A DNA stretch of 64,000 nt, taken from positions 11,106-75,105 of the forward strand of contig CALXVY010000002.1 of the NCBI GenBank assembly GCA_944392255.1, read 5' to 3'. A program made the translations under genes and the position numbers. The notes below the pieces were generated by a model. That model was not told the DNA's origin. It saw only the letters and a list, made by a program, of their open reading frames with translations, and searched no databases. Position 1 is the first letter of the stretch; the number at the start of each line of letters is the position of its first letter. This DNA is from an uncultured Alphaproteobacteria bacterium. Lineage in GTDB: Bacteria; Pseudomonadota; Alphaproteobacteria; RF32; CAG-239. Below, one piece after another: positions 1,636-62,735 of this stretch.

Positions 1636-1904
1636 TTTTTAACTATCCTTACTCATTTTAAAACATCAATACGGGGCACAAAAACCCCTTTTAGCTAAGA
1701 TATTAATACACGATATTTTTTTTAATTCAACAAAATTATCCACTTACACCACAGATTTGCAGCGATTCTTTAATCCTTGAGCAAAAACCTTGCCAAAGGT
1801 ATAACCCCCTTCAAGAAACCTAACTACACCTTAGCTTTTTAGCCTCTGCATGCACAGCAACTAATTAATGTGATCCAGCGGCCTCAACATAAAAAAAGAA
1901 AAAT

Positions 1905-1945
1905 CCCCTCTTTGGTCAAACCAACAAAGAGAGGATTTTTTTAAT
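1905..1945. terminator. intrinsic terminator hairpin (bidirectional) between lipoprotein gene and secY
   Basis: inverted repeat AATCCCCTCTTTGG...CCAACAAAGAGAGGATT flanked by an A-run and a T-run. Confidence 0.5.
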
Positions 1946-1952
1946 GTAAGAC

Positions 1953-2282
1953 TTAGTCCTTGAACTTAACCTCTAAAACTTTTTCTCCGCTATAGACGAT
2001 TGTATCTCCAGGCTGAGCGAAGAAAAAATCTTTAATCTGCTTGTTTTCATAGTTATCCTTATCGCAACAAAACCCCGACAAAATATTTCCATCCGTAAGG
2101 CGAACAGAAAAAACAGTCCAGATTCTATGGTCTCTCTGAAATACGCGGTGCACGACACCTTGTTTTATTTCTTGTGTCTCCATCGATACCTGTTCAGGTT
2201 TTTGAAGCTTATCCTCAACAGAAGAACAAGAAGTTAAACTCAAAGAAAAAATCACCCCCAAAACAAATAAAAATTTTTTCAT
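1953..2282 (-). CDS. hypothetical lipoprotein (109 aa)
   Basis: N-term MKKFLFVLGVIFSLSLTSC has a lipobox (L-T-S-C); no recognisable domain. Confidence 0.55.
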   Translation of the reverse strand: MKKFLFVLGVIFSLSLTSCSSVEDKLQKPEQVSMETQEIKQGVVHRVFQRDHRIWTVFSVRLTDGNILSGFCCDKDNYENKQIKDFFFAQPGDTIVYSGEKVLEVKFKD

Positions 2283-2288
2283 ACACTC

Positions 2289-2480
2289 TTATTGTTTGAA
2301 ATGAACACTTTTCCAAATCATATCAATAATCATTAAGAGCATTGCCAAAGCAGCAGTAATACATCCGGCAAGCAAAATATTCAATACCTTTTGGTTAGGT
2401 CCGGTTATAGATGCAACCAAAATAAAAAGAACAACCTCTATAAAGGCTAAAATAAAGCCTCCGATAACTACATATTTCAT
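2289..2480 (-). CDS. hypothetical small membrane protein (63 aa, 2 predicted TM helices)
   Basis: two hydrophobic segments; sits 6 nt upstream of the lipoprotein gene on the same strand. Confidence 0.35.
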   Translation of the reverse strand: MKYVVIGGFILAFIEVVLFILVASITGPNQKVLNILLAGCITAALAMLLMIIDMIWKSVHFKQ

Positions 2481-2499
2481 ATGCCTTATTTTTTAGAGA

Positions 2500-2859
2500 T
2501 TAAACATATTTAACTACCCCTCTCAAAGAGGGATTAAACATTCCGTTTAAAACGGAAACAACCATTTTCTCAACAAAAAGTACAGAATCCATAATTTGGG
2601 TTGTCGGATTTTCTTCTCGCCATGCCTCGATGGCTAATTTAACCATCAATACAAAAGCTTGTAAATGCGGTTCCGAAAAAAGGATTTTTTTAAGCTTTTG
2701 CTCATCGGCGTAGGGATGAGCTTGGCTCATTAAACTGCGCAATTCTCGAGATTTTGTTTTTTTCTCTTCTTCAGAAAGAGCGTTTAAAACTCTAAGCTGT
2801 TCAAAATTTTCAATTTGTTTGGTCAAATACGCAACGACATTTTTTTTAATTTCTTCCAT
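2500..2859 (-). CDS. hypothetical protein (119 aa)
   Basis: ORF with coding-like composition in same-strand tandem with the two genes above; no recognised motif. Confidence 0.4.
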   Translation of the reverse strand: MEEIKKNVVAYLTKQIENFEQLRVLNALSEEEKKTKSRELRSLMSQAHPYADEQKLKKILFSEPHLQAFVLMVKLAIEAWREENPTTQIMDSVLFVEKMVVSVLNGMFNPSLRGVVKYV

Positions 2860-2939
2860 AATTATATGTTTTAAAGTTAATAATTTTTATATAGCGCTTA
2901 ACGTAGCATATTTTTTTGTCTCAGGCAAGCACAAAAAAA

Positions 2940-2972
2940 AGGGGCAAGGAAAAATTCCCTTACCCCTTTTTC
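2940..2972 (-). terminator. intrinsic terminator after rplO
   Basis: hairpin GGGGCAAGG...CCTTACCCC preceded by an A-run on plus strand (a T-run on the minus transcript). Confidence 0.5.
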
Positions 2973-2991
2973 AAATTTTTTCTCAGCTGAA

Positions 2992-3447
2992 TTAAGCAAT
3001 AACGTTAACTTTACCGCCTGCTTTTTCAACAGCTGCAATAGCAGCCTTAGAAGCTGAATTTACGCTAATGGTAACATTGCTGGTGATAGCACCGCGAGCC
3101 AACAAACGAACACCGTCGAGCTCTTTGGAGATAACACCGGCTTCCATCAAAGCTTTAACATCAATAGAAGCAGCATTCAATTTACCGGCATCAACAGCTT
3201 TTTGGATAGTATCCAAATTAACAACTGCAAATGTTTTAGCAAAAGGATTTTTGAAACCGCGTTTCGGAAGTCTACGGTAGATAGGCATTTGACCGCCTTC
3301 AAAACCGTTAACAGCAACACCGGAACGAGATTTTTGACCTTTTTGACCGCGACCACCGGTCTTACCGGAACCACTACCGATACCGCGAGCAACACGCTTG
3401 CGAGATTTTCTGGCTCCTTCGTTGTCTCTAATTTCGTTTAATTTCAT
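2992..3447 (-). CDS. rplO: 50S ribosomal protein L15
   Basis: [43 protein letters not shown]... gly-rich L15 signature. Confidence 0.95.
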
Positions 3448-3517
3448 TTTTCTTCACCTTAAACTTTTCAAAATCTTCTGGGAAGCGAGGCTCATCACCT
3501 CGCCCCATAACAGATTT

Positions 3518-3703
3518 TTATTCTTCGACTTTAACGAGGTGAGCCACTTTGCGGATCATACCTCTGATTGACGGAGTATCTTCCAATTCTCTAGTCTTGT
3601 TCATTTTGTTCAAACCCAAACCAATCAAGGTTTTTCTTTGAATTTCGGGACGACCGATAGGACTAGCGATTTGAGTAACTTTAATAGTCTTTTTATTAGC
3701 CAT
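3518..3703 (-). CDS. rpmD: 50S ribosomal protein L30
   Basis: 61 aa, [31 protein letters not shown]... Confidence 0.9.
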
Positions 3704-3705
3704 TA

Positions 3706-4266
3706 TTAAGCCTCCTCAACCATTTTAGCGTTAGAAGAATTTTCGCGGCGGCTAACGATATCGCCAACCTTTTTACCTCTTTTAGCAGCAACCATTCTCG
3801 GAGAGTTGATTGATTCCAAAGCGTTGAAAGTAGCTTTAATCATATTGTAAGGGTTGTTAGAGCCCAATGATTTAGCAACAACGTCTTGAACACCCAAAAC
3901 TTCGAAGATAGCACGCAACGGACCACCGGCAATAACACCGGTACCGGCAGGAGCAGTTCTCAAATAAACTTTACCTGCGCCGAAACGACCGGCAACGTCA
4001 TGGTGGAGAGTTCTGCCCTCGCGGAGAGGAATGCGAACCATATTCTTTTTAGCTTCGTTAGTAGCTTTAGAAATAGCATCTGGAACTTCAGTTGCTTTAC
4101 CTGTGCCGTATCCAACGCGACCTTTTTGGTCACCGACAACGACAACAGCAGCAAAAGACATGTTGCGTCCGCCTTTAACAGTTTTAGCTACGCGGTTAAT
4201 GTGAACCAGTTTTTCAACCAATTCTTCTTTCTTTTCAGCCTTACGACGATCTACAGCTTGTGCCAT
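3706..4266 (-). CDS. rpsE: 30S ribosomal protein S5
   Basis: 186 aa; ...[18 protein letters not shown]... S5 dsRBD/C-terminal domains. Confidence 0.95.
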
Positions 4267-4275
4267 TTAATCCTC

Positions 4276-4647
4276 CTAAAATTTCAGACCAGCTTCACGA
4301 GCTGCGTCAGCTAAAGCTTTTACACGACCGTGATAGATGTAGCCGCCTCTATCGAAGACAACTTCACTAACACCATTCTTAACCGCTCTCTCAGCAACAG
4401 TCTTACCGATGAAGCTAGCAGCTTCGATGGTAGATGTTTTCTTGATGCTGTCGCGAATTTCTTTATCCAAAGTGGAAGCAGAAGCAACAGTAACACCTTT
4501 GGTGTCATCAATGATCTGAGCGTAGATGTGCTTACCGCTGCGAAATACAGACAATCTCATCTTTCCATTCGCAGCTTTTTTCAAAGCAGCACGAACGCGG
4601 TTTTTTCTTTTTTGATTTTTTTCAAACAATTTACTTGGCGTACTCAT
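4276..4647 (-). CDS. rplR: 50S ribosomal protein L18
   Basis: 123 aa; ...[18 protein letters not shown]... Confidence 0.95.
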
Positions 4648-4658
4648 TTGATTAATCC

Positions 4659-5198
4659 TTATTTCTTCTTGCCTTCTTTACGACGGACATATTCGCCAAC
4701 ATATCTAACACCTTTACCTTTGTACGGTTCCGGAGATCTGTAATCGCGAATTTCCGAAGCAACTTGACCAACCAATTGCTTATCTGCACCAAATACGGAG
4801 ATTTGGGTCGGAGATGCACAAGTAATTTTGATGCCTTCAGGAATTGCAAAGTCAATATCGTGAGAAAAACCTAAAGACAAAACCAATTTTTTAGTGCCTT
4901 CAACACGAGCTTTGTAACCAACGCCGATAAGTTCCATTTCTTTAGTAAAGCCTTCGCTAACACCTTTAACCATGGTGTTGATGCGAGCACGAGTAGTGCC
5001 CCAAAGAGTGCGAGCTTGTTTAGAAGTTGACAACGGAGTTACAACAACAGTGTTGTTTTCCAATTTAGCGACTACGTGGCTGTCATCATAAGCAAAGCTT
5101 AATTCGCCCAATTTACCACTTGCTTTAACAACGTTACCGTTGATAGCAACATTAACGCCATTAGGGATAATAACAGGATATTTTCCAACTCTAGACAT
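4659..5198 (-). CDS. rplF: 50S ribosomal protein L6
   Basis: 179 aa; [21 protein letters not shown]... Confidence 0.95.
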
Positions 5199-5210
5199 AT
5201 CAGTTTCTCC

Positions 5211-5609
5211 CTAAAATACTTGACAAAGAACTTCACCGCCAACGTTAGCTTTACGAGCTTCGTGATCACTCATAACACCAGAAGGTGTAGAGATGATAGA
5301 AATTCCTAAGCCGTTGTAAACTCTCGGCAAGTCTTTAACGCTAGAATATACGCGACGACCCGGAGTAGAAACGCGGTAAATTTCGGTTATAACAGATGTA
5401 CCTTCATGGTACTTTAATTTAATGTGAAGTTCATCAACACCGGCTCTAACATTAACCTTTTCATATCCGGCAATGTAGCCTTCTCTTTTGAGAACTTCCA
5501 ACACATTTTCACGCAAGCGAGAAGCCGGAGATACGACCTCAGATTTTTTCGCTCTTTGTGCGTTTCTAATGCGTGTGAGCATATCGCCCAAAGGATCACT
5601 CATAGACAT
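5211..5609 (-). CDS. rpsH: 30S ribosomal protein S8
   Basis: 132 aa; [22 protein letters not shown]... Confidence 0.95.
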
Positions 5610-5620
5610 TCTCGATTCTC

Positions 5621-5926
5621 CTACCAGCTTGATTTAACTAAACCTGGGATTTCACCTCTGCCGGCTTTCTCGCGCAATTCAACACGAGCAATACCGAACT
5701 TGCGGTAATATCCGCGAGAACGACCGGTCAATTTGCAGCGGTTTCTAAAACGAATTGCTGCAGAGTTACGCGGCAGTTCTGCCAATTTCAAAGTCGCTTG
5801 GAATCTCTCCTCAGGAGAAACAGTTTTATCCATAACGATCTCTTTGAGTTTCAAACGGCGTGAAGCGAACTTCTTAGCCATTTTAGCTCTTTTCAAGTTT
5901 CTGTAGATTTCACTTGTTTTTGCCAT
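5621..5926 (-). CDS. rpsN: 30S ribosomal protein S14
   Basis: 101 aa; [31 protein letters not shown]... C-term ...[18 protein letters not shown]. Confidence 0.9.
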
Positions 5927-5940
5927 AGTTCAGTCTCCAC

Positions 5941-6480
5941 TTATTTCTTGCACGGCAAGTTAAATGAGGTCAGAAGAGCTTTAGCTTCTTCATCGGTCTT
6001 TGCGGTAGTGCAGATGCAAACATCCAAACCGTGAATATTTTCAACTTTATCATAGTTGATTTCCGGGAAGATGATTTGTTCTTTAATACCGAAAGCAAAA
6101 TTTCCGCGACCGTCAAAGTTTTTACCGGTAATACCGTGGAAGTCACGAACACGCGGCAAAGCCATATTGATCAATCTTTCCAAGAACTCATACATTCTGT
6201 CAGAACGAAGAGTTACTTTGCAGCCGATAGGCATACCTTCTCTGAGCTTAAAAGTAGCAATTGATTTACGAGCATGAGTCATAACAGGTTTTTGACCAGC
6301 AATCAATGCCAATTCTTCAGCAGCGGTGTTGAGTTTTTTCTTATCGGTAACAGCGTCGCCGACACCAACGTTCAACACAATCTTTGTCAACTTCGGAATC
6401 TCATGTGGGTTTTTGTAACCGAATTTTTCCACAAGAGATTTCTTAATGACCTCGTTATAAAGTTTTTCAAAATTAGTCAT
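5941..6480 (-). CDS. rplE: 50S ribosomal protein L5
   Basis: 179 aa; ...[16 protein letters not shown]...[10 protein letters not shown]... Confidence 0.95.
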
Positions 6481-6491
6481 TAGATTTTCCC

Positions 6492-6809
6492 CTATTTATC
6501 GATTACTTCACCGGATTTACGAGCGACGCGTACTTTTTTGCCATCAACTTCTTTGTAACCAACTTTAGTTGCTTTTCCAGATTTCGGATCAACAATGGCT
6601 ACGTTAGAAACGTTGATAGGAGCTTCTTTCGTAACAATGCCGCCAGGAGTAGTTTGGCTGGGTTTGGTATGTCTTTTAACCAAGTTGATACCTTGAACAA
6701 CCACTTTACTCTCTTTAGGCAAAGCTTTTACGACTTCACCGGTTTTGCCTTTGTCTTCACCAGACAAAACAATAACCTGATCGCCTTTTTTAATTTTCAT
6801 CTTAGGCAT
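6492..6809 (-). CDS. rplX: 50S ribosomal protein L24
   Basis: 105 aa; [26 protein letters not shown]... KOW motif. Confidence 0.9.
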
Positions 6810-6810
6810 A

Positions 6811-7179
6811 TTATAAAACCTCCGGTGCTAACGAAATTATTTTCATAAATTTCTTTGCACGCAATTCTCTGGTAACGGGGCCAAAGATACGAGTACCGAT
6901 AGGCTCGCCGTCCTTATTAATCAGAACTGCAGCGTTTTTGTCAAAACGGATAACACTACCGTCTTTACGTCTGATGTCAGAAGCTGTTCTAACAATCACA
7001 GCTTTTTGCACATCACCTTTCTTTACGCGTCCTTTTGGGATAGCGTTTGTAACAGAAACTACAATCACATCGCCGACCGAAGCATGCATTCTCTTGGAAC
7101 CGCCAAGAACTTTAATGCACTGCACCTGACGAGCACCTGAGTTATCAGCTACATCAAGGTTGGTTTGCATCTGTATCAT
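6811..7179 (-). CDS. rplN: 50S ribosomal protein L14
   Basis: 122 aa; [28 protein letters not shown]... Confidence 0.95.
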
Positions 7180-7198
7180 TTTTTAATTCCTTCTTTTT

Positions 7199-7435
7199 CT
7201 AGGCGTTATTAACGATTACAGTCCAAGTTTTTGTCTTAGAATATGGTCTTGATTCCTCAATAGAAACCACATCACCGACTTTGAACTGATTGTTTTCATC
7301 GTGTGCAGCATACTTTTTGCTTTTACGAATGAATTTTTTGTAAACAGGGTGCATAACTTGGCGTTCAACTTTAACGACAACTGTTTTGTCCTGTTTATCG
7401 CTTACAACAACACCTTGAAGAATTCTTTTAGGCAT
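7199..7435 (-). CDS. rpsQ: 30S ribosomal protein S17
   Basis: 78 aa; [25 protein letters not shown]... Confidence 0.9.
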
Positions 7436-7445
7436 ATCGTTTCTC

Positions 7446-7643
7446 CTAACTATTCTTCTTGCGCTCAGCGATGAGCGTGTTGATTTTTGCTATTTCTCTA
7501 CGGACATTTCTTATTACAGCAGAATTTTGTAATTGTCCAGTAGATTGTTGTACTCTTAAGTTAAATTGTTCTTTTTTCTTTTCGAGCAATTTAGCATTAA
7601 GTTCATCAATAGTCATAGCACGAAGATCTTTAACTTTAAGCAT
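7446..7643 (-). CDS. rpmC: 50S ribosomal protein L29
   Basis: 65 aa; [32 protein letters not shown]... Confidence 0.85.
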
Positions 7644-8073
7644 TAGCTTCTACTCCTTGCTCTGATTTCAATTTTTTAACAAATTTGGTTTTGATTGGGA
7701 GTTTAGCAGCGCCCAAAGCAAAAGCTGTGCGAGCTGTTTCTTCATCAATACCATCTGCTTCGAACATAATGCGACCCGGTTTAACGCGTGCGCACCAGTA
7801 TTCGACAGATCCTTTACCTTTACCCATACGAACTTCAGCAGGTTTGTCTGAAACAGGAACGTCTGGGAAAATTCTAATCCATACTCTTCCGGCTCTTTTC
7901 ATTTCACGAGTGATAGCACGACGAGCAGCCTCAATTTGGCGAGCTGTAATACGATCAGGTGTAAGAGCTTTCAATCCATATGAACCGAAGCTTAATTCTG
8001 TACCGCCCTTAGCGTTGCCGTGAATACGGCCTTTGTGCTGTTTGCGGAACTTTAATCTTTTTGGACTTAACAT
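7636..8073 (-). CDS. rplP: 50S ribosomal protein L16
   Basis: 145 aa; [24 protein letters not shown]...; 8-nt overlap with rpmC. Confidence 0.95.
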
Positions 8074-8092
8074 CTTATTTTAACCTCAAAAA

Positions 8093-8761
8093 TTATTTCT
8101 GTTCAGCCAACTTTTTGTCCTGAGCCATCGGATCGTGAGCCATAATATCGCCTTTGTAGATCCAAACTTTTACGCCGCAGGCACCGTAAGTTGTGTGAGC
8201 CGTAGAGGTTGCATAATCAATGTCAGCGCGCAATGTGTGCAAGGGAACACGACCTTCACGATAGTATTCTGTTCTTGCGATTTCAGCACCGCCTAAACGG
8301 CCTGAGCAGCTAACTTTGATACCTTCTGCACCCAAACGAAGAGCAGATTGCATAACTCTTTTCATAGCACGACGGAAAGCAACACGGCGTTCCAATTGTT
8401 GAGCTACGGAGTCAGCAACCAACTGAGCATCCAACTCAGGTTTTCTAACTTCCAAAATGTTCAATTGGACTTCAGAGTCAGTCATTTTTTGAATTTGGCT
8501 TCTCAAATTCTCAATGTCTTGACCTTTTTTACCAATTACAACACCCGGTCTTGCAGAATGAATAGTAACTCTAGCCTTTTTAGCAGGACGTTCGATAACA
8601 ATCTTGCTTACGCCGGCTTGAGCCAATTTCTCTTTCAAGAAATCTTTAATTTTCAAATCTTCGTGTAGGTAATCAGCATATTTTTCGTCTGCATACCAAC
8701 GAGAGTCCCAAGTGCGGTTAACTCCAAGACGAAGACCTGTAGGATTTACTTTTTGTCCCAT
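8093..8761 (-). CDS. rpsC: 30S ribosomal protein S3
   Basis: start placed at internal ATG (8759-8761) giving [13 protein letters not shown]...; KH domain; the longer upstream ORF would overlap rplV. Confidence 0.9.
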
Positions 8762-8765
8762 TAAC

Positions 8766-9140
8766 TTACTCCCCACGCTCAGATACAACGATTGTTAAGT
8801 TAGAGAAAGGTTTCAGAACTCTTGCTCCTCTACCGCGGCCTCTAGCGTGCATACGTTTCATTACCAAACCTTTGCCGACATAAGCTTCTTTAACATAAAG
8901 CTTATCGATATTTAACTGATGGTTGTTTTCAGCATTTGCAATAGCAGATTGTAAAACAGCCAAGGCAGCTTTTGCAATTCTCTTCTTAGAAAAAGTAAGT
9001 TCTGCAATAGCTTTTTCAGCATTCATACCACGGATAGTTTGAGCAACTAAGTTCAGTTTACGCGGACTTGTACGAATAGCGTTACAAATAGCAATAGCTG
9101 ATTTTGCGTCTACTCTTCTTTCATTTTTAGTCTGAGCCAT
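8766..9140 (-). CDS. rplV: 50S ribosomal protein L22
   Basis: 124 aa; [38 protein letters not shown]... Confidence 0.9.
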
Positions 9141-9142
9141 AA

Positions 9143-9421
9143 TTAACCTCTCTTAGCTTTTTTATCAGCGGCGTGACCATAGAAGGTACGTGTCGGAGCA
9201 AATTCACCAAACTTGTGACCAACCATGTCCTCGGTAACCAAAACTGGAATAAATTTGTGACCGTTGTGAACACCAAATGTCAAACCAACAAATTGCGGCA
9301 ACATGGTAGAACGACGAGACCAAATTTTGATTACTTCGTTTTTGCTAGAATTTCTAGCATTTGCAGCTTTTTTCAGAAGATAGCCATCAACGAAAGGGCC
9401 TTTCCATACGGAACGTGTCAT
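9143..9421 (-). CDS. rpsS: 30S ribosomal protein S19
   Basis: 92 aa; [18 protein letters not shown]... Confidence 0.95.
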
Positions 9422-9436
9422 TAGCTTTTCTCCCTA

Positions 9437-10270
9437 TTATTTCTTATTCTCATGACGGCTTCTCATAATGAACTTATCCGTCTTCTTGTTAGTACGAGTC
9501 TTATAACCCTTAGTCGGTTTACCCCAAGGAGTTGTCGGATGACGACCACCGGAGGTTCTACCTTCACCACCACCCATCGGGTGATCAACAGGGTTCATAG
9601 CAACACCACGGGAAACAGGTCTCATACCCAACCAACGAGCACGACCGGCTTTACCCAATGATCTGTTTTGGTTATCCGGGTTAGAAACAGCACCGACAGT
9701 AGCCAAGCACTCTTCACGAACAACACGGAGTTCACCAGAGCTCAATTTCAACTGAGCATAACCGGCGTCTTTACCAACGAGTTGAGCATAGCAACCAGCA
9801 GAACGAACCAATTGGCCGCCTTTACCAGCTTTGAGTTCGACGTTGTGAATAATAGTACCAACCGGCATATTTTTCAAAGGCATTGCGTTACCCGGTTTAA
9901 TATCTGCTTTGTCGGCAGAAATGATTTTATCACCGGATTTAATTCTTTGAGGAGCCAAGATATAAGCCTTTTCGCCATCTTCATAGCTAATCAAAGCGAT
10001 GAAAGCTGAACGGTTAGGATCATATTCGATTCTCTCAACAGTAGCCTCTACATTCATTTTGTTACGTTTAAAGTCAATAACGCGCAATTTGCGTTTATGA
10101 CCGCCACCAATTCTACGACTAGTAACGTGACCAAAATTATCACGTCCGCCAGTTTTTGTCAAACCAATAGTCAAAGATTTCTCAGGGGCTCCTTTATAAA
10201 GCTCGGATCTATCAACGATTACAAGCTGACGAAGTCCAGGAGAAGTGGGCTTATAATTTTTCAATGCCAT
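9437..10270 (-). CDS. rplB: 50S ribosomal protein L2
   Basis: 277 aa; ...[19 protein letters not shown]... and C-terminal ...[19 protein letters not shown]... Confidence 0.95.
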
Positions 10271-10273
10271 GTC

Positions 10274-10591
10274 TTATATTCCTGTAGTAACATCAATATT
10301 TTGACCTTCAGCCAAAGTAACAACAGCTTTTTTGTAGTCAGAACGTTGACCAACAAAACCTCTAAAGCGTTTTACTTTGCCGAATTGACGAATTGTATTA
10401 ACTTTGTTTACTGTAACGTTAAAGATGTTTTCAACCGCAGCTTTAACATCATCTTTAGTAGCAGACAAAGGAACCAAGAAGGTTACTTTACCAGCTTCTG
10501 AAGAAATCATAGATTTTTCAGTAATAACCGGACGTACGATTGTGTCATACATCTTAGCGGTTACATTGTTTGATTTTTTAGAGTTACTCAT
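10274..10591 (-). CDS. rplW: 50S ribosomal protein L23
   Basis: start taken at ATG 10589-10591 (MSNSKK...[14 protein letters not shown]...), overlapping the rplD stop in an ATGA arrangement. Confidence 0.85.
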
Positions 10592-11208
10592 TTCAATCTT
10601 TCTCCCAAGCAAACAACCGCATCTTTAGTCAATACCAATTTGTCTTTTCTCAAGATGTCGTATACATTGGCACCAATTGTCGGCAATACATCAACGCCGA
10701 TAATGTTTCTAGAAGCCAATGCAAAGTTTTCATCAACTTCTTTACCATCGATGAACAAGCAATTTGTCAAACCGCAAGCTGCCAATTTGTTTTGCAAATC
10801 TTTAGTTTTCGGAGCAGACAATTTAGCTTCGTCAATGATAACGAGATTACCCTCTTTAGCTTTAGCAGAGAGAGCAGTTTTCAAACCGAGTTTTCTAAAC
10901 TTCTTGGTCAGTTCGTGTGAGTGGTCGCGAACAACCGGACCAAATACAACACCACCTTTTCTAAACTGAGTACCTTTGCGAGAACCTTGACGAGCATTAC
11001 CAGAACCTTTTTGTTTGAAAGGTTTAGCAGGTGTCAAAGCAACTTCGCTACGGCCTTTGGTTTTGTGGTTACCAGATTGCAATCTGGCCAACTGCCAATT
11101 TACAACGCGGTGTAAAATGTCAGCGCGAACTTCCAAGCCGAAAATAGACTCGTCGAGTTCGATTGAACCAACATTTTTATTATCTAAATTTAAGATGTCC
11201 TGTTTCAT
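10588..11208 (-). CDS. rplD: 50S ribosomal protein L4
   Basis: 206 aa; [24 protein letters not shown]... Confidence 0.9.
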
Positions 11209-11228
11209 AATTTACTTTCCTTTTTCCA

Positions 11229-11954
11229 TTATGCATTCTCAGCTGAAGTAGTTTCAGCTTTAGCTGCAACAGGTTCATCAACTTTCTTCAAACCGGCAGG
11301 CATCGGCAAGTTAGAAGCAGCAGCTTTCTTTACGGCATCGGTAACATATACCCAAGCGTTTTCACCACCCGGAACAGCACCTTTAACCATAATAAGACCT
11401 CTGTTGGCATCAATAGCGGCAACTTTCAAGTTTTGAACGGTAACACGTTCATCACCCATGTGACCAGCCATTTTCTTACCTTTGAATACCTTACCTGGAT
11501 CTTGTCTTTGTCCTGTAGAACCATGAGAACGGTGAGAAATTGATACACCGTGAGATGCTTCCAAACCGGCAAAGTTATGACGTTTCATAACACCGGCAAA
11601 ACCTTTACCTTTTGAAGTTGAGCAAACATCAACATATTGACCAACAACAAAGTGTTCTACAGATAATTCGCTGCCGACAGGGAGCAAGCAATCTTCAGAA
11701 ACTCTGAATTCAGCGAGCTTTTTCTTCGGCTCAACATTAGCTTTGGCAAAATGTCCTTTAAGAGGTTTGGATACGTTTTTAGCTTTTACAGCACCTGTTC
11801 CGAGTTGAACAGCTGTATATCCGTCTCTTTCTTGAGTTTTAACATCAACAACTTGCAAGTTGTCAACTGCCAAAACTGTAACTGGGGTATGAGTACCATC
11901 AGCACCAAAAATGCGAGACATTCCAAGCTTTTTTGCGATCAGACCCGTACGCAT
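11229..11954 (-). CDS. rplC: 50S ribosomal protein L3 (alphaproteobacterial long C-terminal tail)
   Basis: 241 aa; [20 protein letters not shown]... C-terminal extension typical of alphaproteobacteria. Confidence 0.95.
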
Positions 11955-12019
11955 TATTATTTTTTCCTTTTCTAATTGGTTGACAGCCTATCTTAAGTAA
12001 ACCGCCAACATTAAATTAA

Positions 12020-12743: not shown

Positions 12744-12753
12744 TTTTATAATC

Positions 12754-13247: not shown

Positions 13248-13256
13248 TTGTTATGA

Positions 13257-13802: not shown

Positions 13803-13810
13803 TTTCATCA

Positions 13811-52700: not shown

Positions 52701-53874
52701 CTTCACGGCATGTATTTTTATCTGTTGCCAAAGTATTGCGGATATAAGGTCCAACATTAACCCCATCAATAAATAAGGTTTTAAATTCTTTAACTTTGGC
52801 AGCGCTCAATTTATCCAAAACTTCTTGAGTAATTTCATCACCGGCTTCGGCAATAATTTCACCTGTTTTGCTATCAACAACGTTGTTAGCCAAGAATTTT
52901 CCGATAATTTGTTCGTTAGAAACTTTATAAAATTCCAAACCGTTATCTACGAGTTTTTGAGCCATACGCGGAGCAAGTTTTTTACCTTTTTCCAATACAA
53001 CTTCACCGGATTTGGCATCAATCAAATCATAATCAAATTTAACGCCCTTCATACGTTCGGCATCAAATTTAACTTTCCAGCCTTTTTTATCGGCAACATG
53101 CAAAATGGCATCATAGAAGTAATTTAAGATTTCTTCTTTATCCATACCTTTAATTTCGGTACGCTCAATCTCTTTGCCTTCTTTAGCAAGTTTGGCAATT
53201 TTTTCTTCTGTTTCTTTAGAATATAAAGAATAAAGAATTGAAGAAATCGGCAATTTACGGCGACGGTCAATACGTGCATACATCAAATCTTTGGCATCAA
53301 ATTCAAAATCGAGCCAAGAACCGCGATAAGGAATAACGCGTGCGGCAAACAAATATTTACCGGAAGAAACGGTTTTACCTTTATCATGGTCAAAGAACAC
53401 ACCAGGAGAACGGTGCATTTGAGAAACAACGACACGTTCAGTACCGTTGCAGATAAATGTACCTTTATCTGTCATCAACGGAATATCGCCCATATAAACA
53501 TCTTGTTCTTTAATGTCATGAATAGATTTTGCACCGGTAGCTTCATCGGTATCCCAAACAACCAAACGCAAAGTTGCTTTAACGGGAGCAGCATAAGTCA
53601 TATCACGTTTGATACATTCATCAACGTCATATTTAGGCTCTTCGAGTTCATACTTAACAAACTCCAACTCGCCGTTACCGGAAAAATCTTTAATTGGGAA
53701 AATTGACTTGAAAACTTCTTCCAGACCAAATTCGCAGGGTTCTGCCCCTGGAGCCTGGATAAAGCTGTCATAAGAACCTTTTTGAACTTCGATTAAGCTC
53801 GGCATATCAGCAACAGCATCAATTCTGCCGAAACTTCTTCTTACACGTTTTTTGCTCGTATAAGATTTCAACAT
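49702..53874 (-). CDS. rpoB: DNA-directed RNA polymerase subunit beta
   Basis: 1390 aa; conserved beta-subunit blocks throughout. Confidence 0.97.
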
Positions 53875-54232
53875 TGTGCTTTAATCCTTAGGTTATGATT
53901 CTGCGACAATACTGGCGGAAAACCGCACCCCGACCGCAGAAAGTTATGTAACAAAAATCGATTTTTAAGAGTGAATCGCCCCAAACCATTGATTTAAAAA
54001 TCCCCTTGAACGCGATTCGCAAAATAATAAATTTTTAAAATTCGTCTATTTATAATCCTTGAGTCTAAAATTGCAAGAGTTTTTATCAAAAAAGAGTCAA
54101 GTTTTTTAATTTTTTTGCACAACAATATTTCTTAAAAGAGTCAGTAAGATTCACTTTCTGCTTGTCAGCGATTCGCTTATTGATTTTTCATCATTTTTTA
54201 AAAAAATTATTTTTTTGTCAAAAGAGGCGCAC
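53875..54232 (-). promoter_or_regulatory. rpoB upstream/leader region with GANTC-type motifs
   Basis: TTGAGTCTAAAATT (54059), AGAGTCAAG (54095), AGAGTCAGT (54140), GAATCGC/GATTCGC repeats (53978, 54013, 54166). Confidence 0.35.
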
Positions 54233-54272
54233 AAAAAAAAGCGTATGAACCTGCTTTTTAGATTCATACGCT
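54233..54272 (-). terminator. intrinsic terminator after the ankyrin gene
   Basis: A-run then AGCGTATGAACCTGCTTTTTAGATTCATACGCT. Confidence 0.55.
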
Positions 54273-54293
54273 TTCATCAAACTTCAATTACAT

Positions 54294-56226: not shown

Positions 56227-56252
56227 TAAAAAAGCCTGTCAAAATGACAGGC
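56227..56252 (-). terminator. intrinsic terminator after rplL
   Basis: A-run then AGCCTGTCAAAATGACAGGCT. Confidence 0.6.
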
Positions 56253-56278
56253 TTTTTTCAAAATTTTGAAAGAAGAAA

Positions 56279-56653
56279 TTACTTCAATTCAACTTTAGCA
56301 CCAGCGGCTTCAAGTTTCTTCTTAATTTCTTCAGCTTCAGCTTTAGGAGCACCTTCTTTAACAGTTTTTGGAGCACCATCTACCAAGTCTTTAGCTTCTT
56401 TCAAGCCCAATTGAGTGATAGCACGGATTTCTTTAATAACGTTAATTTTGTTAGCACCAGCGTCAGCCAAGATGATATCGAATTCATCTTTTTCTTCAGC
56501 GGCAGCAGCACCACCAGCAGCACCACCGGCAGCAACAGCAACAGCAGCAGCGGCAGAAACGCCCCATTTTTCTTCTAACATTTTAGACAAGTCAGCAGCT
56601 TCCATAACAGTCAAAGCTGACAATTCATCAACTAATTTGGCTAAATCGGCCAT
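56279..56653 (-). CDS. rplL: 50S ribosomal protein L7/L12
   Basis: 124 aa; Ala-rich hinge [22 protein letters not shown]; C-terminal ...[13 protein letters not shown]. Confidence 0.95.
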
Positions 56654-56769
56654 ATTTTTTCTCCAATAAAATAAATTAAATCAAATTAAAAAATCTTTTT
56701 ACTCATACTCTATTTTTTATTTTTAGAACCGTTAATACGTAGTAATAACGACATAAAAATGAAAAATAA

Positions 56770-57252
56770 TTAAGCAGCTTCTTTTTCGCTGTAAGCTTTT
56801 GTAACTCTTGCCAATTGAGCAGCAGGAGCTTGCAACAAACCAATGATTTTGGCTCTGAGTTCGTCCATAGAAGGAATAGAAGCCAATTTCTTGATTTCAT
56901 CAATAGAGATAACGCCAGTACCCATAGCGCCACCAACGATGAGCAATTTTTCATTAGTTTTAGCAAATTCAACACAAGCTTTGCAGGCAGAGATTGGATC
57001 AGAAGCGAAAGCAATAGCTGTCGGACCTTTGAACAAATCAATCAAACCTTCAAATTTTGTGCCTTTAAGAGCCAGACGAGTAATGCGATTTTTTGTAACT
57101 TTAAAGCCAGCGCCTGCTTTTCTAACATTGTTACGCAATTCAGAAACTTCGGCAACAGTCAAGCCTTTGTAGTGAGAAACAACTACAACTTCTGAATTAT
57201 TGAACAATTCATTCAGTTCGCTGAGCAATTGTGCTTTTTCTTCGCGATTCAC
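56770..57252 (-). CDS. rplJ: 50S ribosomal protein L10
   Basis: 160 aa; MNREEKAQLLSELNELFNNSEVVVVSHYKGLTVAEV... Confidence 0.9.
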   Translation of the reverse strand: MNREEKAQLLSELNELFNNSEVVVVSHYKGLTVAEVSELRNNVRKAGAGFKVTKNRITRLALKGTKFEGLIDLFKGPTAIAFASDPISACKACVEFAKTNEKLLIVGGAMGTGVISIDEIKKLASIPSMDELRAKIIGLLQAPAAQLARVTKAYSEKEAA

Positions 57253-57689
57253 TTATTGTCTCCAAAAAAACATCTTTTATTTAATAAAGATGCATTCAAC
57301 ACATTTCCACAATCGACACCGTTTCAAGAAAAGCCAAAGCTCTTCGTCCACCTTGCCTACTGTGGGACCTAATCTGTCCAGGAGAAAAAAGATATTAAAA
57401 TTTTTCTTACTCCCGTCTGCGTAGGATATTTAAGATTTCTGTTTATAAGTTGAAGAACATTCCTTAACAAAAAATCTCAGAACTTTCCTTCCCCTTTTAT
57501 CACAGCGACCACCTACGGTCTTGGACAGTTTCCAAGGGAAATCGAACTCCGATTTCAGCATCTACGACTAACACCCTCGATGCTTATTTTTCTTCGTCGC
57601 CCCTTGGAGAGCGGGTGATGATAAGTTCACCACCCAAAACTTTTCAACAACTCCAAGCACCAAACTTATCGGCGCCCGAGCCCCAAGCA
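57253..57689 (-). promoter_or_regulatory. rplJ (L10) leader, probable L10(L12)4-autoregulated structured 5' UTR
   Basis: about 435-nt untranslated gap between rplA and rplJ, markedly GC-richer than surroundings with multiple stems (e.g. CGTCGCCCCTTGGAGAGCGGGTGATG); known L10-leader position. Confidence 0.5.
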
Positions 57690-58370
57690 TTACAAAGCTG
57701 TTGTATCAACTTTAACGCCAACGCCCATAGTGCTGCTCAAAGAAATTTTCTTCAAGTAAGTACCTTTGGCACCAGCCGGTTTAGCTTTGATAATAGCATC
57801 AATAAAGGTTTTAGCGTTATCATAGATTTGATCTTCGCTGAAAGAAGCTTTAGCGATACCAGCATGAACGATACCGTTCTTTTCAACACGATATTGAACT
57901 TCACCAGCTTTAGCTTTTTTAACAGCGTTGGTAACATCCATGGTAACAGTACCGAGTTTCGGGTTCGGCATCAAGCCTTTAGGACCCAAAACGCGAGCAA
58001 CTTTACCGGCAAGACCCATCATATCAGGAGTAGCGATGCAGCGGTCGAAATCAACTTTACCAGACAAGATAGAGTCGATTAAGCTTTCAGCACCGACGAT
58101 ATCAGCACCGGCAGCTTTAGCTTCATCAGCTTTTTCGCCTTGAGCCAAAACGGCAACGCGAACAGTTTTACCATTGCCGTGCGGCAAAGAGCAAACACCG
58201 CGAACCATTTGGTCAGCGTATTTCGGGTCAACACCGAGGTTAATTGCAACATCAATGGTTTCATCAAATTTAGCAGTAGCGTTTTCTTTAACGATTTTAA
58301 CAGCATCTTTCAAGCCATAAGCTTGATCTTTATTAACTGTTTTATAAGCGTTTACGATTCTTTTTCCCAT
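57690..58370 (-). CDS. rplA: 50S ribosomal protein L1
   Basis: start at [12 protein letters not shown]...; ...[19 protein letters not shown]... Confidence 0.95.
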
Positions 58371-58374
58371 CACA

Positions 58375-58812
58375 CTACTCCACAACCTTAATGCCCATAG
58401 AATAAGCTTGACCTTTAACCATGTTCATAGCTGCTTCAACGGTTGAGCAGTTAAGATCAGGCATTTTAGCTTCAGCAATTTCTTTAACTTGAGCCATTGT
58501 AATTTGACCGGCAACGGTTTTAGTCGGTTCTTTAGAACCACTTTTAACGTTAGCAGCTTTTTTAATGTAGTAGCTAACCGGCGGCAATTTTGTAACGAAT
58601 GTGAAAGATTTGTCTTCGTAAGCGGTAATAACAACCGGAACAGGGATACCCGGTTCCATTTTTTGAGTTGCAGCGTTAAATTGCTTACAGAAATCCATGA
58701 TGTTCAAGCCTTTTTGGCCGAGAGCCGGACCAACCGGAGGAGAAGGGTTAGCTTTTCCAGCCGGAATTTGAAGCTTGATTAAACCTAAAATTTTCTTCTT
58801 AGACTTAGCCAT
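58375..58812 (-). CDS. rplK: 50S ribosomal protein L11
   Basis: start at [43 protein letters not shown]... Confidence 0.95.
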
Positions 58813-59123
58813 TATATACCTCAATTTTCGGGTTCGTGGTCGGACCATGGCTGGTCTCCCACGAAATTATGTTAAAACGATTCGCTCATAAAAAGACATA
58901 AGAATCCCTTTAAGAGTCGCTTTTGTATACCACACTCTTTTCAGATTGCAAGCATTTTTTGTAAAAATTTTCACATTTAAGACTTTGATTCGATTCACAC
59001 TTCCGAATCTAAAATATTTTTTTGTATTTTTGTCCACATTATACTTGCATAGCATAAATAAGTATGTTAACAAAAAAATTAAATAATCAATTATTTTAGA
59101 TAACCCGTTAACTTATTATAATT

Positions 59124-61048: not shown

Positions 61049-61052
61049 GTAA

Positions 61053-61087
61053 CAAAAAAGCTCCGAAAACATCGGAGCTTTTTTTTC
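61053..61087. terminator. bidirectional terminator between anmK and nusG
   Basis: AGCTCCGAAAACATCGGAGCT flanked by an A-run and a T-run. Confidence 0.6.
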
Positions 61088-61102
61088 AAATTTATAATAT
61101 TT

Positions 61103-61636
61103 CTATTTTACTTTCTCAACTTGAGAAAATTCCAATTCTACCGGCGTAGAACGACCAAAAATAGAAACAGAAACTTTCAAACGAGATTTTTCGGTATCCA
61201 CTTCTTCAACCAAACCAATGAAAGAAGCGAACGGACCATCATTAACACGTACTTGTTCACCAACTTCATAATTAACAATAGTCTGCGGACGTTCAATACC
61301 TTCTTGCATTTGCGTCATGATTCTTTGAGCTTCTGCTTCGGTAATCGGATATGGTTTATTGCGGCTACCCAAGAAGTTTGTAACTTTAGGATTATTTTTA
61401 ATCAAATGCCAAGCATCATCAGTCATAATCATTTTAACCAAGATATAACCTGGGAAAAATTTGCGTTCAGAATTAACTTTTGCACCTTTTCTGATTTCAA
61501 CAACTTCTTCAATTGGAACCATTACATCTAAAATTTTATCGTCCATTTTTTTGAGAACAGCTTGTTCTTTAATAGATTCGGCAACCTTTTTCTCCGAACC
61601 GGAATGAACATTTACAACATACCAACGAGCGTCCAT
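61103..61636 (-). CDS. nusG: transcription termination/antitermination factor NusG
   Basis: start at [18 protein letters not shown]...; C-terminal KOW ...[22 protein letters not shown]... Confidence 0.9.
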
Positions 61637-61640
61637 AAAA

Positions 61641-61838
61641 TTAATCTCCAAGACCTAAAACTAACTGTACTGCCCAACCCAAAATTTGGTCAACAAAGAA
61701 AAAGAATGTTGCGGCAATAGCCACCAAAACAATCACCACCAAAGAAGTTTTAACAACTTCATTTTTGGTTGGCCAAGTAACTTTTTTAACTTCTTGTTTA
61801 ACTTGTCTAAAAAACTGAATCGGACTGATTTTTGCCAT
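61641..61838 (-). CDS. secE: preprotein translocase subunit SecE
   Basis: 65 aa; ...[39 protein letters not shown]... Confidence 0.85.
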
Positions 61839-62069
61839 GGACTATATCCACCTTAACTAAAAAAATTAAACACTTCAGAGCCATCTATCCACGACAAACC
61901 ATTCGGATAACAAAGCTCCGACTAATGTGGCAAACATATTAAATAATTTCAGAGATGTCAACAACTATATTACCGCTACAAGCAAATAAATCATTGCTTA
62001 AACTATCATGTAATATATAATGCAAAACAATAATTAAATTATCATGTTAAACTATTAAAATTAAAAATT

Positions 62070-62516
62070 ATGGAAAATATCATCAAATTAATTAAAGCTC
62101 ACGCTTATGAAAAAGCCAAAGAAGCTGCCAAACAAGGCGTTAAGCCAAGCATAAAAGCTCAGCTTAAACTGTTTCACATGTTAAATACATCTCTACTTAC
62201 CAAAGAAGCCCTGATAATCCGAATAATATATTATCACGAGGGTTTCATGTATGACATTAAGCACCTTGTAGATGGAATAGAAAGAGCTACAATTGAAAGC
62301 AAAAATTGGGCCAAAATAACTTCTCTGATAGAAGATGCTCCGTTGCAGACGAACAATCTTATTTTACTCATAGCAACAATACACAAACATAAGGAAGAAG
62401 AAAAAGTACGCAAAATACTTTTCAAATATGACCAACTTTACAAATTGAGTAGCATTTCATGGCCGGAAAGTATTAAAACAACTTGCCAAAACATGATTGC
62501 TGAAATTGAACCCTAA
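62070..62516 (+). CDS. hypothetical protein (148 aa)
   Basis: ORF between secE and tRNA-Trp on the opposite strand, followed by a terminator; no motif recognised. Confidence 0.4.
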   Translation: MENIIKLIKAHAYEKAKEAAKQGVKPSIKAQLKLFHMLNTSLLTKEALIIRIIYYHEGFMYDIKHLVDGIERATIESKNWAKITSLIEDAPLQTNNLILLIATIHKHKEEEKVRKILFKYDQLYKLSSISWPESIKTTCQNMIAEIEP

Positions 62517-62548
62517 AAAAAGCCACCTTAACGGTGGCCTTTTTTTAT
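62515..62548 (+). terminator. intrinsic terminator
   Basis: GCCACCTTAACGGTGGC followed by CTTTTTTTATT. Confidence 0.55.
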
Positions 62549-62556
62549 TGGCATGG

Positions 62557-62700
62557 CAGTAAGATTGTCCGCGACATTGCGTTCCGCAATGCTTGTTCCT
62601 TCGCGCTCATTCGTTTCACTCACCGGCGTGCATCCGCCCGCCTTTCGCTTGGCGTCGAACTCACTTCCTCGTGAGTTCTCATCAACTTCCCCTAAATGCC
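62557..62700 (-). pseudogene. degenerate tRNA-Trp-derived fragment / GC-rich structured element
   Basis: TGGCATGGCAGTAAGATTG (compare tRNA-Trp 3' end TGGCAGGGGCAGTAAGATTCG), GACATTGCG (compare GACATTCGG) and GTCGAACTCAC (T-loop) pieces separated by about 70 nt of GC-rich insert; same TTTTTATTGGCA lead-in as the intact tRNA. Confidence 0.35.
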
Positions 62701-62702
62701 AA

Positions 62703-62735
62703 TAAAAAAACCGCCCTTTCGGACGGTTCTTTTTA
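62703..62735. terminator. possible bidirectional terminator 3' of tRNA-Trp
   Basis: A-run, AACCGCCCTTTCGGACGGTT, T-run. Confidence 0.3.

Follow-up and report, generated by a model that had tools for sequence, protein, structure and literature searches.

Genes between the operons: filled boundaries in the ribosomal and RNA polymerase cluster of an uncultured gut alphaproteobacterium

The ribosomal/RNA polymerase supercluster is a textbook case of conserved gene order that provides markers for phylogeny and metagenome binning. In an uncultured alphaproteobacterium (RF32; CAG-239) this order is interrupted by other genes at one boundary after another, which raises the question of how they came to lie there and whether a single process accounts for them. 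The stretch analyzed here, referred to as the window, comprises 64,000 nucleotides (nt) of contig CALXVY010000002.1 (assembly GCA_944392255.1, positions 11,106 to 75,105 of the forward strand). A preliminary description of it had listed five junctions with inserted genes and an orphan block beside rpoC, and had proposed that either expression level or a shared integration mechanism is exploited at this locus. We consider it probable that the concatenation of the operons has been lost in this lineage, and that the open boundaries are permissive, recombination-driven hotspots between highly conserved genes. The inserts do not go back to a single kind of event: several are old and have been passed on vertically, and others, among them the rplO/secY cassettes and an array of genes for proteins resembling acyl carrier protein, differ from strain to strain.

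The comparison is based on ~215 related loci (L-numbers denote individual loci), in which all relatives are represented by metagenome contigs or metagenome-assembled genomes (MAGs). Junctions were anchored by tblastn, the gaps were extracted, and the open reading frames (ORFs) contained in them were clustered. Exact-protein look-ups and a NusG scan of species representatives placed the window among MAGs of uncultured Alphaproteobacteria from human and animal guts, which include BRZ_ bins, Hadza and rumen MAGs, UMGS1578, and Candidatus Scatocola, which is classified in NCBI as Rhodospirillaceae incertae sedis. NusG identity to the window falls from 99% to 73% in MAGs, and Rhodospirillales isolates come next at 68%. 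The same sequence is found on contigs from other samples (L011, 100% over 17.7 kb; L104, 98.7% over 15.4 kb; L113, 100%; L012, 99.6%), and because these independent contigs carry the same arrangement, it is not the product of mis-assembly.

The core genes all lie on the minus strand in canonical order, as judged from the ORF listing and Pfam/NCBIfam matches, and form the following blocks.

283..1635, minus strand: secY (Pfam SecY, E=1.6e-107)
2992..12331, minus strand: S10-spc genes rpsJ to rplO, unbroken (ORF map; Pfam on syntenic loci; 96-99.9% DNA identity with relatives)
18586..23009, minus strand: str operon rpsL, rpsG, fusA, tuf1 (Pfam, synteny)
45512..53874, minus strand: rpoC and rpoB (ORFs of 1389 and 1390 amino acids (aa); Pfam in L011)
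56279..58812, minus strand: rplL, rplJ, rplA, rplK (Pfam on the identical locus L011)
61103..61838, minus strand: nusG and secE (Pfam in L011; promoter-like site 61961-61933)
63861-64000, minus strand: 3' end of tuf2, part of a second tuf copy at the right edge of the window

Read along the minus strand, with inserts in parentheses, the order is tuf2, (a helix-turn-helix (HTH) gene), tRNA-Trp, (o148), secE, nusG, (anmK, o161), rplK-rplA-rplJ-rplL, (o436, ank), rpoB, rpoC, (orphans and 18 kb of housekeeping genes), rpsL, rpsG, fusA, tuf, (NMNAT, pncA, pncB, nadE, two 101-aa paralogues, two genes for proteins resembling acyl carrier protein (ACP)), rpsJ...rplO, (119-, 63- and 109-aa genes), secY. 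Seven boundaries are thus filled inside 64 kb, each holding 1-9 genes according to the ORF map and Pfam; ORFs of 68 and 70 aa were discarded as not credible genes. The five junctions listed before do hold genes at the coordinates given, and one more, tuf2/tRNA-Trp, just outside the range then covered, is filled as well. The inserts are confined to the boundaries between transcription units. The blocks secE-nusG, rplKA, rplJL, rpoBC, rpsL-to-tuf and rpsJ-to-rplO are internally intact, the exception being secY, which is cut off from the spc operon.

The boundaries have a common architecture. Terminator-like hairpins are situated after rplO, nadE, each ACP-like gene, rplL, ank and tuf, and also between nusG and anmK and between o713 and o174, so that the terminator bracketing described earlier is borne out for most inserts. 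On the other side, a conserved, promoter-like region precedes each of rpoB, secY, rplK and secE, and those of secY, rpoB and rplK are kept in relatives whether the site is filled or empty. Concatenation by terminator-promoter overlap has been shown to select for contiguity (Brandis et al., 2019; PMC6735719). In this lineage one transcription unit ends in a strong terminator and the next starts from its own conserved promoter and leader; the units would no longer be linked, and from this autonomy we infer that contiguity is no longer selected. The boundaries could then serve as landing sites at which genes are gained, lost or swapped without damage to an operon.

Turnover is seen at the rplO/secY junction, which has the following features.

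1636-1796, minus strand: secY promoter/leader, ~160 bp, common to all relatives (upstream alignment)
1797..2929, minus strand: strain-variable cassette island (relatives' homology ends exactly at 1796/1788 and 2930/2935)
~1890-1940, minus strand: terminator belonging to the cassette island
1953-2282, minus strand: 109-aa lipoprotein of the island
2289-2480, minus strand: 63-aa protein of the island with two transmembrane (TM) segments
2500-2859, minus strand: 119-aa R1 protein of the island
2935..2972, minus strand: strong intrinsic terminator right after rplO, with a 17-bp stem and a T-run, which splits secY from the spc operon

The position of the rplO hairpin is kept in all relatives and its stem sequence varies. 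Beside RplO proteins identical or near-identical to that of the window, at least eight configurations occur, assembled from about nine families that include R1, small membrane proteins, the lipoprotein, NUDIX, peptidase S51 and a 242/248-aa pair. The same configurations recur across independent studies and samples, and different cassettes abut identical 150-bp flanks, repeatedly in independent studies. L104 and L109 share 98.7-99.7% identity with the window across more than 15 kb, yet contain a different cassette set. In L109, RplO is identical and secY has a synonymous divergence (dS) of 0.02, against a dS of 1.05 and 70.6% aa identity for the R1 allele (Nei-Gojobori), so that R1 of L109 appears, by this comparison, to be an allelic replacement between near-identical flanks. 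The R1 family comprises 13 clusters and is found at rplO/secY only. Alignment of the rplO/secY borders revealed no att repeats and no target duplications. Polymorphism, sharp borders and divergent alleles between identical flanks are directly observed here; the cassettes would be replaced between strains by double homologous recombination in the ribosomal flanks.

Just past the left end of the window, rpoA/rplQ in the alpha operon is another junction that is opened in close relatives. Its gap of ~600 bp contains a conserved 76-aa ORF (L108 17367-17597, L109 17261-17491, L110 7816-8046).

At rplL/rpoB the contrast between empty and filled sites is visible within the family.

53875..54275, minus strand: rpoB leader and promoter-like region, with the ank terminator (54275-54237)
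54294-54779, minus strand: 161-aa ankyrin-repeat protein (ank; Ank_2, E=1e-31)
54859-56169, minus strand: o436, a 436-aa secreted protein with HExxH (signal peptide; motif invariant)
56228..56258, minus strand: terminator after rplL, with a 14-bp stem and a T-run, conserved in relatives

The gap is ~160-690 bp in outgroups (1664 bp in one), 350-500 bp in most human-gut relatives (RpoB 88-91% identical), and 2407 bp in the window, and the ~200 bp upstream of rpoB are conserved among relatives irrespective of whether the site is filled. o436 and ank are found only in the clade of the window (L011-L017, L020), other relatives being empty or carrying something different; at least seven unrelated fillings occur, at least six of them in sister lineages. 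The o436 family comprises 11 clusters among 5.8 billion proteins, in which H179, E180 and H183 are invariant. Its distant homologues (36-45% identity) lie in non-ribosomal, mobile-looking contexts, one of them beside SNF2, DUF3440 and ParB_N. A confident AlphaFold2 model of o436 (pLDDT 80) gave no Foldseek match in the PDB at E<0.1. The o436 gene of L016 was considered as a further allelic replacement and rejected, since its flank dS of 0.10 matches a BRZ_FT-like lineage and indicates ordinary divergence. A role of the ankyrin and HExxH proteins in host interaction is plausible.

The nusG/rplK junction is filled with genes that run against the ribosomal genes.

58813..58990, minus strand: rplK promoter (TTGCAA..TATACA) and hairpin leader (CGTGGGAGACCAGCCATGG...ACCACG), conserved in 11 aligned family members
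59124-59609, plus strand: o161 (weak matches to the S1 RNA-binding repeats found in ribosomal protein S1, E ~1e-4, far under cutoff)
59720-61048, plus strand: anmK (AnmK, E=2e-49)
61054-61084: bidirectional terminator between nusG and anmK

AnmK is, by its Pfam match, a peptidoglycan-recycling kinase. The insert had been drawn from 58813 to 61102; this is correct for anmK and o161, but the part from 58813 to ~58990 is the rplK promoter and leader and holds no inserted gene. The leader has no Rfam match and may belong to an undescribed alphaproteobacterial type of autoregulatory leader that binds L1. The outgroup median of the gap is ~150 bp (more than 600 bp in 6 of 45 loci) against 2257 bp in the window; within the family it ranges from 246 bp (empty) in L023 to 763-4254 bp elsewhere. 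anmK and/or o161 occupy the site in the closest relatives, o161 being conserved there in several (28-61% aa identity), and other families take their place further out. In ~17 more distant family loci, rplK does not follow nusG within up to 10 kb of sequence.

The insert at tuf/rpsJ combines a metabolic operon with small repeated units.

12709..13812, minus strand: array with a tandem pair of ACP-like (PP-binding) genes, 12754-13188 and 13257-13781 (PP-binding/ACP matches below NCBIfam cutoffs)
12709-12753, 13213-13257 and 13768-13812, minus strand: 45-nt terminator hairpin that ends each ~505-557-bp unit of the array (repeat families D5, D6, D16)
13811..14434, minus strand: two paralogous 101-aa orphans (family F2; no family matches)
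14510..18070, minus strand: nicotinamide adenine dinucleotide (NAD) salvage (Preiss-Handler) operon (Pfam/NCBIfam), with its own terminator at 14535-14510
14554-15333, minus strand: nadE (Pfam/NCBIfam)
15338-16816, minus strand: pncB (Pfam/NCBIfam)
16818-17441, minus strand: pncA-like isochorismatase (Pfam/NCBIfam)
17528-18070, minus strand: NadM-like nicotinamide mononucleotide adenylyltransferase (NMNAT; scores below curated cutoffs)
18349..18585, minus strand: tuf-downstream module with two terminator hairpins, duplicated after tuf2 (63548-63860; repeats D1, D2, D8, D9)

Together, NMNAT and the PncA-like, PncB and NadE proteins would constitute the Preiss-Handler salvage route, as predicted from their families. 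Twelve loci have an RpsJ that matches that of the window completely or at 99% identity, and the four-gene block, which is clade-wide, occurs in each of them, except that one lacks pncA and pncB. It is absent from the sister loci L116 and L118, where 0.9-1.2 kb containing small ORFs are found instead, and from L117 and L120, in which tuf is followed by an autotransporter gene and ruvC. The hypervariable sub-segments of the junction are nadE/rpsJ and tuf/NMNAT. The two 101-aa paralogues occur in L102 and L104 and are missing from most other relatives.

The ACP-like units number 0-4 in relatives, fall into three subtypes and encode proteins of 126-322 aa; the family comprises 13 clusters among 5.8 billion proteins. 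The 45-nt hairpin is restricted to this junction, where one copy persists even without any ACP gene. The array resembles an integron cassette array in its short single-gene units, conserved end hairpin and variable copy number. The integron reading was rejected because the window contains no IntI integrase and no attC cores (GTTRRRY); unlike an attC site, the hairpin is a perfect-stem, T-tailed terminator, and unlike integron cassettes the units are paralogous. Since they are paralogous and have their own promoter-like sequences, they point to tandem duplication, and copy number changes as units are duplicated or lost between the repeated terminator hairpins.

The tuf-downstream module forms the upstream border of the tuf/rpsJ insert. 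Its hairpin motif, TTCATGTA..ACACTAG, has 4 exact matches in the window against 0 expected (18370-18393, 18509-18531, 63641-63663, 63781-63804), with a variant at 19969-20002. These hairpins are situated after tuf1, tuf2 and fusA, and the stem sequence itself is conserved in relatives. The copy at the right edge, tuf2 3' end plus hairpin module (63548..64000, minus strand), is 94-99% identical to 18416-18726. In a 5.2-kb contig, L005, the rpsL-to-tuf segment (window 18303-23023) is joined to post-tuf2 sequence (63084-64000). Such an arrangement may exist as a genuine alternative, or the assembly may have switched at the duplicated tuf; it calls for caution in binning and assembly in this lineage.

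How old are the inserts, and are they maintained? Substitution rates were estimated by the Nei-Gojobori method between the window and a BRZ_FT relative (L020, L119), dN/dS being the ratio of nonsynonymous to synonymous divergence.

Housekeeping genes kpsF, lptB, rpoN, folD: dS 1.3-2.5, dN/dS 0.01-0.14
anmK, o161, o436, ank: dS 1.3-2.5, dN/dS 0.05-0.23
Ribosomal genes: dS 0.05-0.25, dN/dS mostly 0.02-0.07
NAD block: dS 0.37-0.58, dN/dS 0.01-0.08

By gene, anmK and o161 have a dS of 1.3-1.6 and a dN/dS of 0.05-0.21, and o436 and ank a dS of 1.6-2.5 and a dN/dS of 0.08-0.23. Because the synonymous divergence of these four genes equals the genomic background, they were in place before the lineages split. 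By their substitution patterns the shared inserts are functional genes under purifying selection, and anmK, o161, ank, the HExxH protein gene, o174, o713 and the NAD operon represent old insertions that have been inherited vertically. The lineage-specificity proposed for the inserts agrees with their absence from outgroups and several sister lineages; relatives do not all share identical inserts, and those that are shared are conserved (dN/dS 0.05-0.23). The NAD block departs from this pattern: its dS against L119 is 3-4x below that of the other non-ribosomal genes of the pair (1.3-2.5), although its codons are adapted to an ordinary degree only. The pattern hints at a younger coalescence of the block, that is, co-transfer with its flanks.

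Does the cargo profit from its position? The cargo would then exploit the high transcription of the locus by read-through from ribosomal promoters, coupling its expression to growth. The NAD operon, the ACP-like genes, o436 with ank and the rplO/secY cassette are co-oriented with the ribosomal genes, the low synonymous divergence of the NAD block could reflect selection for expression, and intrinsic terminators are often leaky. The codon composition argues otherwise. The inserts have a GC content of 0.357, a third-position GC content (GC3) of 0.323 and a codon adaptation index (CAI) of 0.496, almost the values of housekeeping genes (0.367, 0.308 and 0.475), compared with a CAI of 0.655 for ribosomal genes; as the ribosomal set is itself the CAI reference, only the comparison of inserts with housekeeping genes is meaningful. 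Five inserts (anmK, o161, o148, o713 and the HTH gene) run antisense to the ribosomal genes. The co-oriented inserts all lie behind a terminator with a 14-17-bp stem, and several of them have promoter-like sites of their own. The free turnover of cassettes would also be unexpected for genes tuned to the expression of the locus. On these sequence-based grounds, the earlier suggestion that expression level is exploited finds no support, and we regard read-through as an unlikely explanation. Nor does composition give any signal of foreign origin in the inserts, apart from GC3, which is slightly elevated in the HTH gene and the NAD block.

As for a shared integration mechanism, the other suggestion made earlier, integrase and att hallmarks are seen at one junction only, tRNA-Trp/secE.

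62070-62516, plus strand: o148, orphan beside secE, shared with L018 only (68% aa identity; dN/dS 0.18)
62541-62567 and 62730-62755: att-like direct repeat of the tRNA-Trp 3' end, 26 nt, bracketing a remnant of ~190 bp
62737-62812, minus strand: tRNA-Trp (ARAGORN and Rfam)

The repeat sequence is TCTTACTGCCCCTGCCA; three copies of the tRNA 3'-end repeat are present in L018 and two in L006 and L030. In relatives the gap measures 46-7552 bp and is filled almost exclusively with singleton genes. A tyrosine integrase lies directly after tRNA-Trp in L001 (587 aa) and L032. L001 has an EF-Tu identical to that of the window, and the NusG of L032 is just 79% identical to the window's. The two integrases are nonetheless 98.6% identical in aa, and the tRNA-Trp and integrase module (L001 13005-15055, L032 2114-4163) is 95.8% identical in nt over 2.05 kb, with unrelated cargo behind it; the L032 element has 17-bp exact repeats 6 kb apart. 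The presence of a near-identical module in diverged hosts indicates a modular integrative element that moves between gut alphaproteobacteria. In the window itself there is no integrase at tRNA-Trp, only the ~190-bp remnant; tRNA-Trp/secE is a classical tRNA integration site. In relatives, tyrosine-integrase elements have integrated site-specifically at the 3' end of tRNA-Trp. The likeness to known tRNA-targeting integrative elements extends to the integrase 3' of tRNA-Trp in relatives, the direct repeats, the variable cargo and the diverged hosts; in contrast to them, the window has no integrase, and this route explains one of the seven junctions.

On the other side of tRNA-Trp, an 81-aa HTH regulator is encoded between tuf2 and the tRNA gene.

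62915-62944: perfect sigma-70 consensus promoter for the HTH gene (promoter scan)
63139-63384, plus strand: 81-aa HTH regulator (HTH_3/HTH_31 on relatives' homologues; PHROGs and PADLOC HTH matches on the window protein)

Its homologues follow tuf2 in some relatives and tuf1 in others, and the HTH81, F37 and F38 families are found downstream of both tuf genes. The order in L001 is tRNA-Tyr, tRNA-Gly, tuf2, tRNA-Trp. An orphan family that has no member in the window, p214/F3, occurs as cargo at 2-3 junctions in L001, L019, L098, L100, L101 and L108. Its sites are tuf1/NMNAT and tuf2/tRNA-Trp, the rplO/secY members (L108, L112) being weak partial matches only. A 168-aa protein at rplL/rpoB of L127 resembles p214/F3 by eye only. 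A DUF1566-like reading of p214 was dropped for want of a Pfam match; Pfam searches of the relatives' cargo gave no matches.

Could one mobile system, for example one that targets intrinsic terminators or the ends of ribosomal operons, have supplied all junctions? The inserts begin right after terminator hairpins, and p214/F3, peptidase S51 (found at rplO/secY and tRNA-Trp/secE) and HTH families occupy more than one junction in relatives. The position behind terminators would be equally expected if only sites between transcription units were tolerated. No repeat (direct or inverted), att-like core or border motif common to different junctions was found, either by a window-wide repeat search or when terminators and borders were compared by BLAST with ~125 loci, in which each terminator hairpin proved to be limited to its own junction. 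The window contains no integrase, transposase or insertion sequence (IS), and the integrase of relatives lies only beside tRNA-Trp. PADLOC and PHROGs searches of ten orphans returned no defence or phage families, only generic HTH matches. Over the whole window, tRNA-Trp is the sole Rfam feature at the gathering threshold, with no ribosomal leader, group II intron or other Rfam element identified, and E-value scans at rplK/rplJ and the ACP array gave only sub-threshold chance or terminator-driven matches. The ages of the inserts also differ widely. We therefore consider a single mobile system highly improbable.

At the last boundary, rpoC/rpsL, the genes are separated by 22.4 kb, at the rpoC end of which lies the orphan block; the block exists as described earlier, though not as a standalone insert.

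23322..41671: housekeeping stretch of 18 kb (Pfam)
41721..45433, mixed strands: orphan block beside rpoC, with o176 (TM segment and coiled coil), o713, o174 and o152 (doubtful)
44270-44314: bidirectional terminator between o713 and o174

The housekeeping stretch comprises kpsF, lptCAB, rpoN, hpf, ptsN, a sensor kinase gene, folD, yggU and yggT, and further terB, miaB, phoH, ybeY, lnt, an HTH gene and trmB. Its kpsF-lptCAB-rpoN-hpf-ptsN block is kept, divergently oriented, upstream of rpsL across the family, and the block from trmB, the HTH gene and lnt to miaB is kept downstream of rpoC in L127, L183 and L185, with homologues of o174 and o713 in between. None of ~60 relatives with a locus longer than 9 kb, among the 80 matches listed, has rpsL downstream of rpoC. 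Since the flanking blocks are conserved and none of these relatives joins rpsL to rpoC, the separation is ancestral to the whole family.

Of the orphans, o713 is a repeat protein encoded on the plus strand and o174 a secreted protein rich in P, Q and S. Homologues of both (48% aa identity) lie in the same place in L127, o174-like genes (39-42%) occur in L183 and L185, and an identical block is found in L210 and L211. The 713-aa orphan (42124-44265, plus strand) has internal repeats at 42242/42575 and 42646/43153 and a central membrane segment, and its order relative to o174 is swapped in L127. The cargo as a whole fits its earlier characterization, with lineage-restricted orphans, several of them with a signal peptide, lipobox or TM segment, besides an ankyrin protein and a metabolic operon.

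Another explanation is that the inserts are ancestral neighbours lost elsewhere, or the outcome of segmental duplication with asymmetric loss. The latter, known as the SNAP model, was put forward for this cluster in work on other phyla (PMC8046335). The rpoC/rpsL separation and its flanking housekeeping blocks are family-wide, anmK and the NAD genes have ordinary cellular functions and native composition, and the old inserts are at the background dS of the genome. Against this stand the empty sites in outgroups and in several lineages within the family, and the unrelated genes that fill the same site in sister lineages. The orphan families are tiny (11-13 clusters among 5.8 billion proteins), and distant o436 homologues lie in non-ribosomal contexts. 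Allelic replacement between identical flanks is not explicable by differential loss. As a general account of the inserts, ancestry or duplication with loss seems improbable to us.

DNA identity is ~92-99% in ribosomal genes and 70-85% in the other genes compared, and because the ribosomal flanks are so much more conserved, recombination would be possible even between diverged relatives. A far-reaching version holds that the ribosomal genes act as universal homology arms and the open boundaries as linked docking sites, through which niche genes are exchanged across species without mobile elements. If so, cross-species co-transfer would have left its traces in the mosaic identities and in the low dS of the NAD block, and NAD salvage, secreted, lipoprotein, ankyrin and ACP-like proteins would be the niche cargo. 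Such mosaics are seen in L103, which matches L098 and L100 in its S10 part (99.2-99.3%) and L099 in its spc part (99.3%), and in the NAD operon, whose halves have discordant identities among L098, L099, L100, L106, L107 and L119. The local cassette-flank polymorphism is robust; these long-range mosaics are suggestive of recombination. We hold the cross-species version as a tentative idea that is rather unlikely as it stands.

Several points weigh against our preferred reading, that of lost concatenation and recombination-driven hotspots. The loss of selection for contiguity is something we infer. The long-range mosaics could be assembly chimeras of co-existing strains. Low ribosomal dS is expected in highly expressed genes; codon selection alone can explain it, and it is no proof of recombination. 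Finally, the window shows none of the target duplications, IS elements or transposases that would betray how the older inserts entered.

The pattern has precedents. In Gammaproteobacteria and Bacilli, most alterations of this cluster are insertions of a few genes between operons, which break the concatenation and leave the operons intact; full separation of operons comes later, and rates, which are 0.24-3.2 events per 1000 substitutions in gammaproteobacterial orders, are strongly raised in some orders, with Pasteurellales and Streptococcaceae as examples of lineages with higher rates (Brandis, 2021; PMC8046335). The window concerns the same cluster, with operons intact, few genes between them and the empty state in outgroups, and relatives show full separation at the same boundaries (the ~17 nusG loci, L117/L120, L036). 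In the rumen relative L036 (8610-17444) the order is kpsF (minus strand), secE-nusG, mscL-yebC-ruvCAB-ybgC, secY-adk-rpsM, with secE and secY 4 kb apart. In distant family members, representing a later stage, full dispersal of the cluster has taken place with these same boundaries as breakpoints. In contrast to the published cases, which are single fixed events on deep branches, essentially every boundary is open at once here, the spc operon is broken at rplO/secY, and turnover is ongoing at strain level. The published work leans towards duplication or transposon-directed mechanisms; here no transposons are seen, and flank-mediated exchange and a tRNA integrase are indicated.

Half of the horizontal gene transfer hotspots flanked by core genes lack mobile elements; for these, diversification through double homologous recombination in the flanks has been proposed, and such hotspots show recombination in the flanking genes (Oliveira et al., 2017; PMC5635113). 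Our junctions are alike in holding differing accessory genes in the same core interval, with high turnover in place of a nested pattern of presence and absence, many singletons and mostly no integrase. Mosaic identities and a divergent allele between identical flanks point towards recombination in the flanking core genes as well; chimeric metagenome assembly may also produce such signs. Unlike those hotspots, seven are clustered within 64 kb, inside a cluster of conserved order and with ribosomal flanks. The window is an unusually crowded case of known cluster break-up and exchange hotspots, with no new integration mechanism. What is unusual is the density, the break in the spc operon, the ongoing turnover at several sites and the taxon, a gut alphaproteobacterium.

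The finding implies that conserved synteny of this cluster is not guaranteed, as a whole gut lineage has opened every boundary and several boundaries are now strain-variable islands. Assemblies may break or switch strains exactly at these junctions, and the duplicated tuf adds chimeras. Candidates for a function in the gut niche are found among the lineage-restricted genes and include those for the secreted HExxH protein, the ankyrin protein and the variable ACP-like proteins, as well as the operon for NAD salvage. The lineage provides a natural series for the two-step model of insertion followed by dispersal, and may serve as a candidate system in which to ask whether highly conserved flanks promote the exchange of accessory genes between species.

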